Counted from the first letter of the stretch, positions 3,583 to 28,625 are shown. The stretch: DNA of 64,000 nucleotides from an uncultured Chloroflexia bacterium (GCA_963797095.1 CAWCNY010000002.1:96001-160000); one strand, 5' to 3'. Notes: a model not told the origin generated them from the sequence alone. Program-made: numbers and translations.

Positions 3583-4266
3583 ATGAATGACGACCCAGAC
3601 CTGAACCTCATGCACATAGTCCGCCCCGCATCCGAGCGCCCCACCGATGGCGCGCCTGTACCAGGACTCCTCCTTCTGCATGGCCGTGGAGCCGACGAAG
3701 GCGACCTGCTGGGGTTAGAAGGTGCACTCGATCCGCGCTTCACCATTGTCAGCCCGCGTGCTCCCTACCGCCTCGGCCCAGGCTGGGCCTGGTATGGTAT
3801 GCCGGAGATCGGCAGGCCGGACCCCGAATCGTTTCTCGCCAGCCTTTCTGACCTGCGCGACTTCGTAGCTGATCTGCCTGCCGCTTATGGGATAGATCCC
3901 AACAGGCTCTATATATTAGGGTTCAGCCAGGGCGCGATCATAGGCTCCGTGCTGACCATGATCACGCCAACTACAGTGCGTGGCATAGTCATGCATAGCG
4001 GGTACGTGCCCCAGGCTCTTGGCAACATCGAGCTTGATATCAAACCCGATGGCCTGGCGGGCAAGCCTTTCTTTGTCGCCCACGGCAAGTATGACGACAC
4101 GCTGCCCGTAGCTTTCGCCCGCGACTCCTATGAATACTTACAAGAGGTCGGTGCCGACGTAATCTATCAGGAGTACCCCATAGGCCATTCGATCAGCGAA
4201 GAAAGCCTCTACGACCTCAGCGAGTGGCTCACCCTTCAACTCGACAGCAAAAGGCCGCTGGCTTAA
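3583..4266 (+). CDS. Phospholipase/carboxylesterase, alpha/beta hydrolase
   Basis: LLHGRG, GFSQG nucleophile motif, HGKYDD, GHSI catalytic His. Confidence 0.88.
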   Translation: MNDDPDLNLMHIVRPASERPTDGAPVPGLLLLHGRGADEGDLLGLEGALDPRFTIVSPRAPYRLGPGWAWYGMPEIGRPDPESFLASLSDLRDFVADLPAAYGIDPNRLYILGFSQGAIIGSVLTMITPTTVRGIVMHSGYVPQALGNIELDIKPDGLAGKPFFVAHGKYDDTLPVAFARDSYEYLQEVGADVIYQEYPIGHSISEESLYDLSEWLTLQLDSKRPLA

Positions 4267-4350
4267 ATGCAAAATCGGCGGTTATACCGCCAATTCTTTC
4301 TTGTCTAACGCCCTCCCCGGATAAGTCGTTAGATTGGGCCGCTTTACGCT

Positions 4351-4731
4351 TTAGTAGCGGTTGCGGTTTCTGTTCGCGCCTGCGCCGACCGTGTTATAGC
4401 AGTCGGAGCAATAGACGGGCTTGTCGCCGCGTGGTACGAACGGAACCTGTGTCTCTTGGCCGCAGTTCGCGCATGTGACCGTGGTCATCGTGCGCTCGCG
4501 GTTGTAGCCACCACCACCGCCGCCATAGCCACCGCTGCTGTAGCCGCCGCCCCCGCCGTAGCCGCCATAGTTGTCGCCATAGCCACTATTGCGGTTTGCC
4601 TTCTTGGCCGCTCGGCAAGACGGGCAGCGAGTAGGCTCGCTGAAACCCTTCTGCGCATAGAAAGCCTGCTCACCTTCAGTGAAGGTGAAAGTCGCACCGC
4701 ACTCGCGGCACGTAAGTATCTTATCTGCCAT
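4351..4731 (-). CDS. Zinc-ribbon protein (zf-trcl plus CxxC-x17-CxxC) with Gly/Tyr-rich linker
   Basis: DKILTCRECGATFTFTEGEQAFYAQKGFSEPTRCPSCR; C-terminal CANC...VPFVPRGDKPVYCSDC. Confidence 0.88.
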   Translation of the reverse strand: MADKILTCRECGATFTFTEGEQAFYAQKGFSEPTRCPSCRAAKKANRNSGYGDNYGGYGGGGGYSSGGYGGGGGGYNRERTMTTVTCANCGQETQVPFVPRGDKPVYCSDCYNTVGAGANRNRNRY

Positions 4732-4971
4732 ATTTGCTCTTTCTTCCCCTTTGTGCGTGTAGGAAACCTAAATTTACTCCGGTGTCTGGCACAGAAGTGT
4801 AGAGTAGAGGGTGTTCACGCATATACCGGGGAGGAAAGCGCGAGAAATCCTGCTTACCTATGACCTTTGCCAGTTCCAACCACTACCAATTGTAACACAC
4901 TTATTCTTGAATAGCAATAGCTTGCTTACATGCGAGTCATGCTGAGAATATGAGCACAAACAAGGCGCTGA

Positions 4972-5352
4972 TTATCCTACTTTTAGCACAGAAAGTATGT
5001 TACCCGCCGGGTCCTTGAACCAGGCTATGTCCGGGCCTCGACCTGAGGATAGCCCTCGAAGAATACCCTTCTCATCAGTAATATTCTCGTAGTGCTCGAA
5101 CTCGACCCCCTTGCCGGTCAATTCATCTACCGCTTCATCGATGTCGTCAACGGGGAAATTTAGAATCGTGTAAGTCGCAGGAACATGGTCGTCCTTAGGG
5201 TAAACAAAGATGCCGTTTCCGCCCTCGATCTTAAGCATCAGATTTGCGGCCTCCTCTTCCACATCAAGCCCCAAAGTCTGCCCGTAAAACTCCCTTGCCG
5301 AGCCCAGGTCGTTTACCGAAAAACCGCTGAATGCTTTGGTATCCTTGAACAC
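4972..5352 (-). CDS. VOC/glyoxalase family protein
   Basis: [34 protein letters not shown]; GTG 5352 preceded by AGGAGG. Confidence 0.85.
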
Positions 5353-22831: not shown

Positions 22832-23168
22832 CTTACAGCATTCGTGTGGTGATACGTAGGCCTCTGCCGCGTTTTCCACTGCTTCTCCGCAGAAACTAAT
22901 CCCGCCCTACAACGTTGTCAGATGGGCTGGTGCGGTGCCATACCCCACAGGTTGCGCTGGCATAGAACTTGCCGCTCCTGAAGCGTAATCAGAAGAGGAT
23001 AGGGAGTGAAATGTGATGCGTGCTGCGTGATTGTTGCGTACTACGCACTTCTTATTCACTCGTCACTCGTCACTCGTTACACATCGTCCATCACCCGCTG
23101 TCCATCGCCTTCGCGTCTTGCGTTTCAAACATGGGCGGGTTAGAGGACGGCTAGAATCGAGGCTTATT

Positions 23169-25487
23169 ATGTCTGAGCAGCTCCCCAGAGCGCAGAGAAT
23201 GCTCATTGTATCGAACAGGCTGCCGGTAACGGTTGTAGAGAAGGATGGCGGCCTGGAATTCTTCGCCAGTTCGGGCGGACTTGTGTCAGGGTTGACAGCC
23301 TACCTGGGCCGCGAACCAGGCACTGGAGATGAAGGGCGAAGGGCGAAGGGCGAAGGGCGAAGGGCGGTACACAATAATCACTCGCCACTCGCCACCCGCC
23401 ACCCCGATTCGTATCTGTGGGTCGGATGGCCCGGCTCTACAGTGGCCGAGCGCAATCAAGCGTGGTTGACGGACGACATAGCTCGCCTCAACTGCCACCC
23501 GGTCTTTATCTCCGAGGAGGAGATGGACAAGTTCTATTATGGGTTCTGCAACAGCACAATCTGGCCGCTGTTCCACTATTTCCCGATGTTCACGCACTAT
23601 GAAGAGGCTGAGTGGCAGGTCTACAAGCAGGTCAACGCGCGCTTTGCCGATGCCGTGCTGGAGGTAATACAGCCCGGCGATATCGTGTGGGTACACGATT
23701 ACCACCTCATGCTTCTTCCTGCCTTGATACGCAGCCGCATACCTGATGCCGAGATCGGGTTCTTCCTGCATATACCCTTCCCAGGCTACGAGATCTTCCG
23801 GTTGATGCCCAGGCAGTGGTGCCAGGAGATACTTGAAGGGTTGCTGGGGGCTGACCTGGTCGGTTTCCATACGCATGACTACACGCAATACTTCCTGCGC
23901 TCGGTGCTGCGTATGCTTGGTTACGAGCATACTATGGGCACTATCGTGGTGGGCGACCGCTTTATGAAGGCCGATACGTTCCCTATGGGTATAGATTTCG
24001 AGAAGTTCCACAATGCTCCCAGCACACCTGAGGTGCAGATAGAGATCGCCAGGCTGCGTGAGGTGCTGCCCGACAGCAAGATAATTCTCTCAATCGACCG
24101 CCTGGACTACACGAAAGGGATAATCAACCGCCTGCGCGGTTATGAGCTTTTCCTGAGGCAGAACCCTCAGTGGCACCGCAAAGCAGTGCTGACCCTGGTG
24201 GTGATCCCGTCGCGAGTAGGCGTGGGTGAGTACAGAGAGACCCGTGAAGGGATAGAAGAACTGGTGGGCCACATCAACGGCCAGTATGCCACCCTCGATT
24301 GGGTGCCTGTTCGATACCAGTACACCTCGCTGCCATTCGAGCAACTCGTGGCCCTGTACAACACCAGTCACGTGGGGATGGTGACGCCACTGCGCGACGG
24401 GATGAACCTCATCGCCAAGGAGTATATCGCGGCCAGTGGGAGAAATAACGGCGTGCTCATATTGAGCGAGATGGCCGGGGCCGCCAAAGAGTTGGGCGAG
24501 GCAATACAGATCAATCCCAATAGTAGAGAGGAGATAGCAGCCGCCCTGCTGCAAGCCCTGGAAATGCCACTGGAAGAGCAGAGGCGTCGAAACCTGGCGA
24601 TGCAGAAGCGCCTGCGACGTTACAACGTCGTTTCCTGGGCTGCCGACTTCGTGCGCGAGCTTGAGAATACCTGCGCAGAGCGTGATCTACTTAAATCGAA
24701 ATTGCTGGACGAGCACGAAAGCGCGCAATTGGTCTCCGATTACAGGATGGCAAAGAGGCGTCTGCTGTTGCTTGATTACGACGGCACGTTGATGGCTTTC
24801 TCGCCCGACCCACAGGAGGTACGCCCATCACAGCAGGTGATCGATTTGCTTGTGAGGTTGTGTGCCGACCCGTTGAACGATGTGGTAATCATCAGTGGGC
24901 GCGACCGGTCCACCCTCGACTCGTGGTTGGGGGCCTTGCCGGTCGGCTTGATCGCCGAGCATGGGGTGTGGGTGCGATATATGGACGATGATTGGGCGAT
25001 GACACAGCCTCTCAGCAGCGATTGGAAGATGAATATCCTCCCAGTCCTAGAGCTATCTGCGGATAGGTTGCCCGGCGCGTTCGTGGAGGAGAAAGATTAT
25101 TCGCTCGTTTGGCACTACAGGGCCGCTGACCCGGAACTTGGGTTACTGAGGTCGCAAGAATTGCTGGACCACCTGGTGAATTTCACGGCCAATATAGATG
25201 TGCAAGTGTTGCAGGGCCACAAGGTGATCGAGGTGAAAACGGGCGGGGTGAACAAGGGCACGTCGGGGCTTCTCTGGTTGGCGCGCGACGAGTACGATTT
25301 CGTGCTGGCTGTAGGCGACGACTGGACCGACGAATACCTCTTTGCTGCTCTGCCTAAGAGCGCATATACGGTGAGGGTGGGCCTTGCGGAGTTGCAGGCC
25401 CGCTTCGACCTTCCGGGGCCGGGCGATGTATTGTCTCTACTGGGCCGCCTGGCCGAGGAGTCGCCGTCGGTAGTCGGTAGTCGGTAG
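23169..25487 (+). CDS. Bifunctional trehalose-6-phosphate synthase/phosphatase (OtsA-OtsB fusion)
   Basis: VSNRLP, WVHDYHL, FFLHIPFP, DRLDYTKG, DGMNLIAKEY; HAD domain LDYDGTL, GDDWTDE. Confidence 0.93.
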   Translation: MSEQLPRAQRMLIVSNRLPVTVVEKDGGLEFFASSGGLVSGLTAYLGREPGTGDEGRRAKGEGRRAVHNNHSPLATRHPDSYLWVGWPGSTVAERNQAWLTDDIARLNCHPVFISEEEMDKFYYGFCNSTIWPLFHYFPMFTHYEEAEWQVYKQVNARFADAVLEVIQPGDIVWVHDYHLMLLPALIRSRIPDAEIGFFLHIPFPGYEIFRLMPRQWCQEILEGLLGADLVGFHTHDYTQYFLRSVLRMLGYEHTMGTIVVGDRFMKADTFPMGIDFEKFHNAPSTPEVQIEIARLREVLPDSKIILSIDRLDYTKGIINRLRGYELFLRQNPQWHRKAVLTLVVIPSRVGVGEYRETREGIEELVGHINGQYATLDWVPVRYQYTSLPFEQLVALYNTSHVGMVTPLRDGMNLIAKEYIAASGRNNGVLILSEMAGAAKELGEAIQINPNSREEIAAALLQALEMPLEEQRRRNLAMQKRLRRYNVVSWAADFVRELENTCAERDLLKSKLLDEHESAQLVSDYRMAKRRLLLLDYDGTLMAFSPDPQEVRPSQQVIDLLVRLCADPLNDVVIISGRDRSTLDSWLGALPVGLIAEHGVWVRYMDDDWAMTQPLSSDWKMNILPVLELSADRLPGAFVEEKDYSLVWHYRAADPELGLLRSQELLDHLVNFTANIDVQVLQGHKVIEVKTGGVNKGTSGLLWLARDEYDFVLAVGDDWTDEYLFAALPKSAYTVRVGLAELQARFDLPGPGDVLSLLGRLAEESPSVVGSR

Positions 25488-25517
25488 TCGGTAGTCGGTA
25501 GTCGGTAGTCGGTAGTC
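25468..25517. repeat. Heptamer tandem repeat (GTCGGTA)7
   Basis: Overlaps the otsAB stop; complementary units at 28976-28998. Confidence 0.85.
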
Positions 25518-25628
25518 CAGAAGTTCCTAGTTCCTAGTACTGGTTTGGGGTGCGAAATGACAAGATGAGCCTTGGTGAGTTAGGATTAAGTTGCCCATGA
25601 TCCAAAACTCAACCGGAGGCTCAATAAC

Positions 25629-27265
25629 GTGATAATCGAACGATATGACCCTGTAAACCTCTTTGAACTGGTGCCCAAGTTGCAATTGGAGATGGAACCG
25701 GAGCTAGCTGAGTTGGACCAGTTGCTAAAAGACGATGAGATCTTCGAGCAGGTCAAGGCTGACCTGGCTAAGCGTTATCCTCACACCCTGGTTAGGGGGC
25801 GTCACTCCACCCCAGTTGAGGTGATCCTGCGTATGCTCATCGTTCGCCGCCTGTACGATTGGAGCTACGAACAAACCGAACACTTCGTCTCGGATAGCCT
25901 GGTCTTACGCCAGTTCTGCCGCCTCTATCTCCAGCCCGTCCCCGACGATACCACTCTCATCCGATGGGCCAACCTTGTCGGTCCGGATACTCTTGCCAGG
26001 GTCAACGATCGAGTAGTGGAGTTGGCCACTCAACTCAAGGTGACTAGGGGGCGCAAACTGCGCGTGGACAGCACCGTTGTGCAGACCAATATCCATTATC
26101 CAACAGACAGCGCCATTGTTGGTGATGGAGTTCGTGTGCTCAGTCGGCTGTTGCACAAAGCCAAAACCGTGCTGGGAGAAAAGCTGGGAGAAGTGGGAGA
26201 AGGGACGACCATAGGGACGACCATCCTGAAGGGCGGCCTGAAAGGGGCATTTCGCAGCCGTACCCGCTCGGTCCGGCGTATCGCTCAACAACTTCATCGG
26301 GTGGCCCGCCGCAAAGGGGAAGAGGCTGCCGAGCAACTCAAGGCAGCCTATGCCAGGCTGCTGGGTATCGCCCAGGCCACTGCCAAGCAGGCGAATCAAG
26401 TGCACGATGCTCTCGCCACCCTCGCCGACACCTTCTCCAGGGCCAAGCTTACCGAGCACTCTGCAACCCGGGCACGGCAGGGGCAGGTAAGGCGCATCAT
26501 CGAGCAGTTGGAGCACTTTCTGCCTCTGGTGGGCAGGCGATAGAGCAGGCTCGACGCCGAGTGCTGCAGGGCGAACCTGTTCGAAGTGGCGAGAAGTTGC
26601 TCTCTCTGTTTGAACTATCATAAGCCGTATCAGGGTTATCCTTAATAGCGGTTCGAAGTGGCGAGAAGTTGCGCTCTCTGTTTGAACCGCACACCCAGGT
26701 CATCCAGCGTCACAAGGCAGGCAAGCCAACCGAATTCGGACGCAAAGTGTGGTTGGGGGAAGTTGAGGGAGGGATCATCAGCGAGTATCGATTGATGGAC
26801 GAGGGCGGGGGCTTGGACCTGATGGAACTGCCGAGAAGCTTAGCCACACATCAAGAGCGTTTCGGGCACCCACCGGACATGCTGGCTGGAGATCGTGGCA
26901 CCTATTCGAGGGCGAACGAGGCGTTGGCACGCCAACTGGGGGTGAAGCGGATTGTGTTGCCACACACTGGGCGAGTGAGCAAGGAGAGACAGGCACTGGA
27001 ACATCAGCGCTGGTTCAGATGCGGGTTCCGGTTCCGAGCGGGGATCGAAGGGCGGATTCGGGTGCTGAAGAGGGATTACGGGCTGGAGACAGGTCGGGAT
27101 CACGAGGAGGAGGGGATGTGGCGAAGGGTAGGGTGGGGTATTGTGACAGCGAACCTGGGGAAGATCGCTGATACACAGATAGCACGGGCAGCACAACGCA
27201 GGGCTGGAGCCAGGGTCGGAGCCAGGACCAGGGCTGGGATAGCGGTGAGGAAGCAAGCGGCGTGA
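25629..27265 (+). pseudogene. IS5/ISNCY-like DDE transposase, disrupted
   Basis: RVDSTVVQTNIHYPTDS, SLFEPHT, GKPTEFG, AGDRG, FRAGIEGRI; frameshift at ~26531 and a 72-bp stop-containing insertion within 26579-26687. Confidence 0.88.
26579..26687. CRISPR. Single CRISPR-like repeat-spacer-repeat unit inside the transposase
   Basis: 37-bp repeats at 26579-26615 and 26651-26687 (1 mismatch) around a unique 35-bp segment. The structure is directly seen; CRISPR origin is inferred, with no cas genes in the window. Confidence 0.5.
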
Positions 27266-27608
27266 ACCAGATTAGGTGGCGATGTGCCAAGTGCCAACCT
27301 ACGACACCCAGAAACACGATGGTGCGAAATATCAGTCTTGATGGCAGTGTCACGTGCTGCTCCGGGCCTTGCGACCGCATTTCGCACCACAAACTAGTAC
27401 TACAGCCGCAGTTAATCAGTTGTAATAGTCTGAACTCGATCTTGCAAAGAGCAATGTCCGATCTTGACTTGCCTGTCCGATAACCCCTGATTACCCTGAC
27501 ATTGTCTGGCTGGTCAAATCCTGGCTGCAGCACTGTTTGCCTTGTTTACCTTCAGTCACTTGGACTCGGTCATTCGCCAGCGATATCACCCTTGAACAAG
27601 GATAACGG

Positions 27609-28625
27609 TCACGAATCCGTCACCCTCAAGACAATCTTGCCTCGCGTGTGTCCTTTTGCTGCTTGCTCATAGGCCTGGCGCGCCTGGGCAAGGGGGAACA
27701 CCGTGTCGATGATGGGCCGGAGGTGTCCCGCATCAATCAATTCGCCAATTTGGATCAGTTCATCGCGGTTGGGTCCGACTATAAAATAGACAAAGCGCAC
27801 GTCGTGTCCCCCACCTCCCTCACGTCCCCCGCCTCCCTTTGCCTTTGACATAGCAGCTTGCGCAGCGGCGGGAGGCGAGGGACTGACGATGGAAACAAGT
27901 ACTCCTCCGGGTTTGATCACCTGCCAGGAGCGCTGCAAGGTGTCGCCGCCAACCGTATCGAAGACCACATCAACACTGTGGACCACCTCCTCGAAGCGCG
28001 TGGTTGTGTAGTCGATGATCTCGTTGGCCCCCACCCCCAGTTCGCGCAGGAAGTCGCGATTGCGGGCCGAGGCGGTCGTGATGACCTGCGCCCCCGCCCA
28101 ATGAGCAAGTTGGACAGCAAAGACGCCAACGCCCCCTGCCCCTCCATGGATCAGGACTGTTTGCCCCGCAGCGAGGTGCGCGTGGTCAAAGAGGGCCTGC
28201 CAGGCTGTCAACGCTGAGAGCGGTACGGCTGCAGCCTGCACGTGGTCGAGCGTGCTTGGCTTGGGAACCAGCTCGTTGGGGAGGGCGACGGTATAGTCGG
28301 CCTGGGCGCCGTCGCGACCATAGTCGAGCATGGCATAGACCTCTGAGCCTTTGATGAGCGTCGTGACCCCGGACATCCCAGGGATTTCGGGCACGCCAGG
28401 ACCGACCTCGGCAACAACTCCTGAGAGATCGCGCCCGGGAATCGGCAGTGTGAGTGGGCTTCCCCCTTTGGTCTGGTAGGTCTCGTCCCATTTTAGCTCG
28501 TTGGCAATGATCCCTGCCGCGTAGACACGCACAAGCACTTCTCCGGGACCTGGACTTGGTTGCGGCGCGTCTTCATAGACCAAGTGATCTGGACCGCCAC
28601 GGCCATGGATATGAATTGCTTTCAT
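27609..28625 (-). CDS. NADP-dependent oxidoreductase (MDR/quinone reductase family)
   Basis: AAAVPLSALTAWQAL, VLIHGGAGGVG, DTVGG, GHTRGKIVL; start trimmed to MKAIHI. Confidence 0.9.
   Translation of the reverse strand: MKAIHIHGRGGPDHLVYEDAPQPSPGPGEVLVRVYAAGIIANELKWDETYQTKGGSPLTLPIPGRDLSGVVAEVGPGVPEIPGMSGVTTLIKGSEVYAMLDYGRDGAQADYTVALPNELVPKPSTLDHVQAAAVPLSALTAWQALFDHAHLAAGQTVLIHGGAGGVGVFAVQLAHWAGAQVITTASARNRDFLRELGVGANEIIDYTTTRFEEVVHSVDVVFDTVGGDTLQRSWQVIKPGGVLVSIVSPSPPAAAQAAMSKAKGGGGREGGGGHDVRFVYFIVGPNRDELIQIGELIDAGHLRPIIDTVFPLAQARQAYEQAAKGHTRGKIVLRVTDS

Follow-up and report, generated by a model that had tools for sequence, protein, structure and literature searches.

The insertion sequence and its broken transposase gene

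We analysed a stretch of DNA of 64,000 nucleotides (G000:C2:96001-160000), referred to here as the window, from the genome of a soil Chloroflexota bacterium (6.02 Mb, 58% GC, 8 contigs). It contains an insertion sequence (IS) of the ISNCY family whose transposase gene is broken and carries 72 bp that are extra relative to its relatives. The features of the element are as follows.

25535..27402, plus strand: ISNCY-family IS, 1868 bp (transposase profile, terminal inverted repeats, two copies)
25629..26543, plus strand: N-terminal transposase ORF fragment, 304 aa (ORF list, DUF772 match, three-frame translation)
26531..26532, plus strand: 1-nt deletion (frameshift) relative to intact relatives (gap against G022:C183; contig X4 with extra A)
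26579..26615, no strand assigned: repeat copy 1 ('neo-repeat'), native transposase sequence encoding VRSGEKLLSLFE, with the ancestral T at 26601
26616..26650, no strand assigned: 35-nt insert, presumed spacer, GC 14/35, with an in-frame TAA at 26621-26623
26651..26687, no strand assigned: repeat copy 2 of the 37-nt target, with G at 26673 (T>G change)
26651..27265, plus strand: C-terminal transposase portion, 204 aa between the start of repeat copy 2 and the stop codon (translation, tblastn to relatives)

The features of an ISNCY member found here are a transposase matching the NCBIfam profile NF033593 (ISNCY family transposase), broken in both copies of the element, terminal inverted repeats of 25 nt (25535-25559 and 27378-27402, 92% complementary) and the presence of two copies. 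The N-terminal part of the transposase scored 237.7 bits with this profile and the C-terminal part, which covers profile positions 274-443 of 444, scored 182.2 bits; an intact relative of 479 aa reached 493.9 bits, the cut-off being 325. The N-terminal fragment also gave a match to Pfam DUF772 (E = 3.5e-13). A (GTCGGTA)n array (window 25466-25517) adjoins the left end of the IS, and the trehalose-6-phosphate synthase/phosphatase ORF at 23031-25487 extends into it. Heptanucleotide tandem arrays of this kind are very frequent in the genome (e.g. C1:408196, C2:749187, C4:363589 and C5:526588) and draw many unrelated metagenome contigs, as seen in the high depth bin at 25472-25543.

The gene carries two independent lesions, namely the 72-bp insertion with its TAA and, about 50 nt upstream of it, a 1-nt deletion. 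The deletion was noticed as a 1-nt gap near 26531 in the alignment to the relative G022:C183; the soil contig X4 has an extra A after 26531, giving ...FLPLVRQAIEQARRRVLQGEPV..., the arrangement found in intact homologues, and in intact relatives ...FLPLVGQAIEQARRRVLQGE... reads in a single frame. The resulting frameshift produces the premature TAG at which the N-terminal fragment ends, and it is common to both copies of the IS. The initial alignment, the 479-aa intact ORF and the reference for tblastn used below all come from G022, an unpublished genome. The initial annotation had stated that removing the 72 bp restores the reading frame. This is right in so far as 72 is a multiple of 3 and the TAA goes with it, but the separate 1-nt deletion after 26531 still breaks the gene, so that deleting the 72 bp would drop a stop codon and leave the gene unrestored.

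The 72 extra bp consist of a second copy of a 37-nt stretch and an insert of 35 nt, which is flanked by two direct repeats identical at 36 of 37 positions. Repeat copy 1 reads GTTCGAAGTGGCGAGAAGTTGCTCTCTCTGTTTGAAC, and the sole mismatch between the copies falls at repeat position 23 (26601 has T, 26673 has G). Immediately outside the repeats the bases differ on both sides, which fixes the unit at exactly 37 nt. The direct duplication around a 35-nt insert described by the initial annotation was therefore confirmed, at 26579-26615, 26616-26650 and 26651-26687.

A second copy of the element carries the same scar

A second copy of the IS lies on the minus strand at G000:C6:1002841-1004708. It is identical to the copy in the window at 1865 of 1868 positions (99.8%), has entirely different flanks, and contains identical repeats, insert, mismatch and frameshift. 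The three differences between the two copies are at 25540, 25542 and 27059, two of which (C/T and G/A) fall within the inverted repeat at the left end. Since the same scar stands in other flanks, the insertion is older than the last copying of the element, and judged from these two sequences the scar was copied after it had formed. As both copies are pseudogenes, the transposase would have acted in trans, and the scarred element was presumably mobilised in this way. The initial annotation had counted the same structure in intact copies of the IS as an argument against its reading. Formally the second copy does hold this structure, but it is an equally broken, 99.8% identical descendant and not an intact ancestor. 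Three further sequences related to the element were noted: a remnant in the same genome (C3:1136688-1136743, a 56-nt right-end fragment, 88% identical), a right-end fragment in a genome of the same genus (G025:C28:452991-453159, 89% identical) and, at C5:480835-481200 of G000, an ISNCY relative (68% identical) with an uninterrupted frame over the insertion site.

The structure sits in a repeated element, a setting which would favour an artefact of assembly or sequencing. We nevertheless give next to no credence to such an origin, because two copies in different flanks share the structure, and contig X1, an independent short-read assembly, agrees with 26370-26648 at every position and thereby includes repeat copy 1 and 33 nt of the insert. 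This contig rules out an assembly artefact, and the check for a sequencing chimera that the initial annotation had proposed thus upheld the structure over repeat copy 1 and these 33 nt. X1 may come from the source sample and hence provides no evidence for a second population; in runs X2 and X3 no contig extended across the junctions.

Related elements have an empty site

If the 72 bp were inserted into the transposase gene, relatives of the IS should contain a single 37-mer and no insert, as the initial annotation had predicted. Using the intact relative as tblastn query against related loci from genomes and metagenomes, we obtained matches in 115 loci, and 6 gave no match. The alignment crossed the insertion site in 103 of the matching loci and did not span it in the other 12. 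Among the 103, an insertion of 24 codons was found in L001 and L009 alone, which are the genome's own two copies. After removal of these two and of 3 overlapping re-fetches, 98 independent loci remained, and in 98 of 98 the 37-mer is single and the insert absent. Similar results were obtained with proteins: the EKxxS motif occurs once in 106 of the 120 best full-length homologues and twice in none, the pattern being unmatched in 14, and P0002 and P0003, the nearest homologues with 86-87% identity to the C-terminal part, have a single VRSGEKLLSLFEP.

The closest empty-site DNA is contig X4 from soil (180 nt, ~94% identical), a single record with a depth of 2.5, in which 26601 is joined straight to 26674 and exactly 72 nt are skipped. 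It has T at repeat position 23, which indicates that T is ancestral and the G of copy 2 a later change. The prediction was thus borne out by the 98 independent loci and by X4, and on this comparison of sequences the insertion is the derived state.

CRISPR-Cas systems in the genome and in its order

The profiles for Cas1 (PF01867) and Cas2 (PF09827) gave no match in the genome, which is 93% complete and lies in 8 contigs, and type I-B and I-D Cas proteins of its relatives, used as tblastn queries, found nothing in it but one weak helicase-like match to Cas3. A k-mer finder detected no CRISPR array in the genome, and there were no copies or remnants in it of the CRISPR repeats of the order. The proposal of the initial annotation that the host's own adaptation machinery was the agent therefore fails for the present genome, which is without cas1, cas2, other cas genes and arrays.

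In the genus, cas1 is present in 1 of 26 genomes, and in the order in 10 of 40, a tally which takes in the unpublished genome G033. A search for arrays in 13 cas1-bearing stretches from 8 genomes of the order brought up 7, spread over 6 genomes; no array was seen in 7 of the stretches, many of which are short contigs. The repeats are 37 nt long in all 7 arrays, and the spacers (n=113) measure 33-40 nt, 14 of the 113 being of 35 nt. A 26-nt unit present three times with a 72-nt period in L144 (3808-3977; G034:C375), near a cas1 match at 4119-5105, was left out of this count. The same-genus genome G010 has a type I-B locus with Cas8b, Cas7, Cas5, Cas3, Cas6, Cas1, Cas2 and Cas4, and G029 has a type I-D locus with Cas3d, Cas5d, Cas7d, Cas10d, Cas4 and Cas1. 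Five of the six repeat types of the order start with GTT (that of G010 starts with CTT) and all six end with AAC. The repeats of about 37 nt and spacers of about 35 nt that had been expected from the duplication and its insert are thus what the arrays of the order contain.

The target and the insert compared with CRISPR units

The duplicated unit begins with GTT and ends with AAC, as the repeats of the order do. Ends of this type (GTT-N31-AAC) occur in 1009 of the 6,018,642 37-mers of the genome (1.7e-4), a frequency obtained in a test that was devised after the sequence had been seen. Compared with the six repeat types, the target attains an identity of at most 17/37 (46%), which is modest and is reached by 2.0% of genome 37-mers per strand. 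No leader-like element was evident at the target when leaders were compared by eye.

The GC content of the insert is 14/35 (40%) vs 58% for the genome, and 3.5% of genome 35-mers are equally low. The initial annotation had found no source for the insert elsewhere in the window, and this held throughout the 6.02-Mb genome save for the second IS copy, the best other matches being of 12-13 nt. The exact 35-mer had 0 matches in viral_contigs and 0 in metagenome_contigs; two 22-mers taken from it had 0 matches in viral_contigs, and a degenerate coding pattern likewise returned nothing there. In blastn searches the best match among phages had E = 0.4, which is chance level, and plasmids gave no match; at up to 3 mismatches there were 0 matches in 400 other Chloroflexota genomes. 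The search for a phage, plasmid or host source with an adjoining PAM, which the initial annotation had advised, therefore yielded no protospacer or PAM in any collection searched, and since no source was found, PAM and orientation could not be assessed. We also considered the insert as a piece of a related ISNCY gene, as suggested by an 11-nt match, an 'IISR...' reading and a resemblance to the 'GGIISRY' region of related transposases, and rejected this as chance, because 52% of 300 shuffles reach the nucleotide score and 79% the peptide score.

In its form the structure is a target-site duplication around an insert, and a small mobile element or integrase, of a kind not known, that makes target-site duplications of ~37 bp could account for it. 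We regard this as very unlikely. Ordinary transposon target duplications measure up to ~12-15 bp and enclose an element with its own ends, and here 37 bp are duplicated. According to the accessible portion of one report, the duplications left by transposition and retroviral integration do not exceed ~9-12 bp, and CRISPR repeats average 32 bp (PMC4872114). A search for inverted repeats over 25000-28500 (minimum length 14) listed none in the insert, and the 35-mer was met nowhere else in the genome, barring the second IS copy, in the 400 Chloroflexota genomes or in the viral and metagenome scans.

The repeat-spacer-repeat geometry is of the right size for a genuine mini-CRISPR array captured by the IS, possibly still functional, and the IS did carry the unit to a second locus. 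Such a capture is most improbable, since the 'repeat' is conserved transposase coding sequence, single in the 98 independent relatives, and so is not derived from an array. Furthermore, in an Rfam search over 26480-26790 no family attained its gathering score; with matches admitted up to E = 10, there were three to unrelated families, attributable to chance, and none to a family of CRISPR repeats. The genome also lacks cas genes by which the unit could be processed or used. A genuine CRISPR array has repeats of a known family, a leader, as a rule at least three units, and cas genes close by or elsewhere in the genome; here there are two units only, a repeat made of transposase coding sequence, no repeat family and no cas genes.

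Other candidate scars in the genome

The genome was scanned in two ways, once for repeats of 30 nt or longer at a spacing of 55-95 nt, no more than 1 mismatch being allowed, and once for 37-nt windows matching at 30 or more of 37 positions, spaced 67-78 nt apart, with unmatched flanks. Together they yielded the two IS copies, numerous heptanucleotide tandem arrays, and repeats lying in repetitive genes or inside another multi-copy element; no further scar of the size class covered (repeat length from about 30 nt, spacing 55-95 nt) was present in the genome. A possible second scar at C4:317639, with a 41-nt repeat and a 25-nt spacer, was rejected, as it proved to be a diverged coding tandem repeat of 66 bp with a repeated peptide on the minus strand. 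At C2:650508, outside the window, a 37-nt repeat in two copies (34/37) surrounds a unique stretch of 32 nt, and its ends are not GTT...AAC. The other multi-copy element has internal imperfect repeats of ~37 nt (33/37) at a spacing of 67-68 nt, made of AAAAGGGAGCCATTTGATAA-like units, and was seen at C1:60028, C1:572878, C3:47138, C3:563479 and C5:167317; these are probably subterminal repeats of another mobile element.

Origin of the insertion

We argue that the 72 bp are probably the fossil of an off-target integration by Cas1-Cas2, that is, a 'neo-CRISPR' unit, which arose before the loss of cas genes or in an earlier host of the IS. The argument rests on three independent measures, the length of the duplication, the length of the insert and the terminal bases, all of which match the CRISPR systems of the order. 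In the steps that we propose, a type I-B or I-D adaptation complex that works with 37-nt repeats would have bound the GTT...AAC stretch of the ISNCY transposase gene. Two staggered strand transfers 37 bp apart would have placed a 35-nt prespacer between them, and the 37-mer would have been duplicated when the gaps were repaired; cuts staggered by a repeat length, the ligation of a fragment and the filling of the gaps are how Cas1-Cas2 acts at a repeat. The insert would have brought in the in-frame TAA, and the element would also have gained the 1-nt frameshift and the T>G change in repeat copy 2. The scarred element would then have been copied to the second locus, presumably mobilised in trans. 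As the present genome is without cas genes, the event would have to precede the loss of CRISPR-Cas from the lineage or have taken place in an earlier host of the IS, and the patchy occurrence of cas1 in the order would make such a loss plausible.

Several observations count against integration by Cas1-Cas2: the genome has no cas genes or arrays, cas1 is sparse, neither a protospacer nor a PAM was found in the collections searched, the identity of the target to known repeats is 17/37, and no leader is seen. The interpretation of the initial annotation is supported in part: Cas1-Cas2 integration at a non-CRISPR site stands as the best fit to the 37 bp, the 35 nt and the GTT...AAC ends, but the machinery is absent from the host. 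What the data show directly is the anatomy of the structure, its derived state, its presence in two copies of the IS and the agreement with CRISPR dimensions in the relatives; that Cas1-Cas2 was the enzyme, and when it acted, we infer.

Error-prone repair is known to yield duplications that contain filler DNA, and the main rival is accordingly a template switch or break repair independent of Cas proteins, which would have duplicated 37 bp and left 35 nt of filler, the CRISPR dimensions being coincidental. A genome without cas genes and the failure to find a protospacer speak for such an accident, which we consider unlikely. The filler has no template in the genome, where the best other matches are of 12-13 nt, and it resembles related IS copies no more than expected by chance (52% of shuffles reach its nucleotide score, 79% its peptide score). 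Moreover, three coincidences would be needed, namely a duplication of exactly 37 bp, an insert of 35 bp that falls within 33-40, and GTT...AAC ends at 1.7e-4, and no other scar of this size class was found in the genome.

With off-target integration by Cas1-Cas2 as the preferred origin, one may go a step further and suppose that the IS picked up a newborn CRISPR unit with one spacer and copied this unit to a second chromosomal site. We put this forward tentatively and regard it as unlikely. If it were true, transposons would be vehicles that multiply neo-CRISPR seeds and carry them from locus to locus, and potentially into other hosts, among them hosts lacking Cas, and there would be a natural route for the birth and dispersal of arrays; the scar would then record that an adaptation module for 37-nt repeats was once active in a lineage that is now without Cas, or in a donor.

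Comparison with known systems

The case is best read as a natural example of a known process, off-target integration, and not as a new kind of system. To judge from the available portions of the literature, off-target integration is well shown with over-expressed or purified Cas1-Cas2, and natural cases with a clean polarity are scarce. The present case joins the three features by which such an event can be called, an empty-site allele in close relatives, CRISPR dimensions matching the systems of the lineage and matching terminal bases. No earlier report of a neo-CRISPR unit inside an IS was found in a narrow search of the openly available literature. If our reading is true, scars of this kind can persist after the Cas genes responsible for them have gone, and can be multiplied by a transposon, which is relevant to the origin of orphan and mini arrays and to the use of scars as records of lost immunity. 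The target also offers a natural substrate on which the rules of site choice by type I-B and I-D adaptation complexes could be worked out.

In Pyrococcus furiosus, the accessible text of an in vitro study describes off-target integration by Cas1-Cas2 in pairs one repeat length apart, at G/C, at sites which have G1, T2, T3 and 3'-proximal A's in common with the repeat; one site with 43% identity to it was used efficiently and with high specificity (PMC6698737). The target described here, identical to a repeat at 17 of 37 positions (46%) and bordered by GTT...AAC, resembles that site as far as it is described there. However, the P. furiosus work concerned a system with a 30-bp repeat, plasmid targets and purified proteins, in so far as the part available tells, and ours is a case read from sequence alone (PMC6698737). 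For type I-B of Haloarcula hispanica, the available portion of the report states that integration duplicates the whole repeat and that the adaptation complex sets its size (PMC4872114). The duplication in the IS is similar, in that it is far longer than any transposon target duplication given in that portion, and no motifs equivalent to the H. hispanica ruler, as described there, were identified in the 37-mer.

The host element is like other IS of the ISNCY family in its transposase, its terminal inverted repeats and its two copies. Unlike a working member, it has pseudogenes in both copies, owing to the frameshift and the 72-bp insertion with its stop.

The closest parallel is in Escherichia coli, where Nivala, Shipman and Church (2018, Nat Microbiol) reportedly showed that off-target integration by the type I-E Cas1-Cas2 seeds neo-CRISPR arrays. 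Nivala 2018 is cited for neo-CRISPR off-target integration in E. coli in the excerpts available (10.1101/148544, PMC7054753), and for circumstantial evidence of natural neo-CRISPR in two other species, again as cited in part (10.1101/148544). Similar to the E. coli units, the structure in the IS is an insert of spacer length at a non-CRISPR site, flanked by a target duplication of repeat length. On the other hand, in contrast to the type I-E units of E. coli, it occurs naturally and its dimensions of 37 and 35 nt are typical of type I-B and I-D, and it lies inside a transposase gene, was copied by the IS to a second locus and stands in a genome without cas genes.
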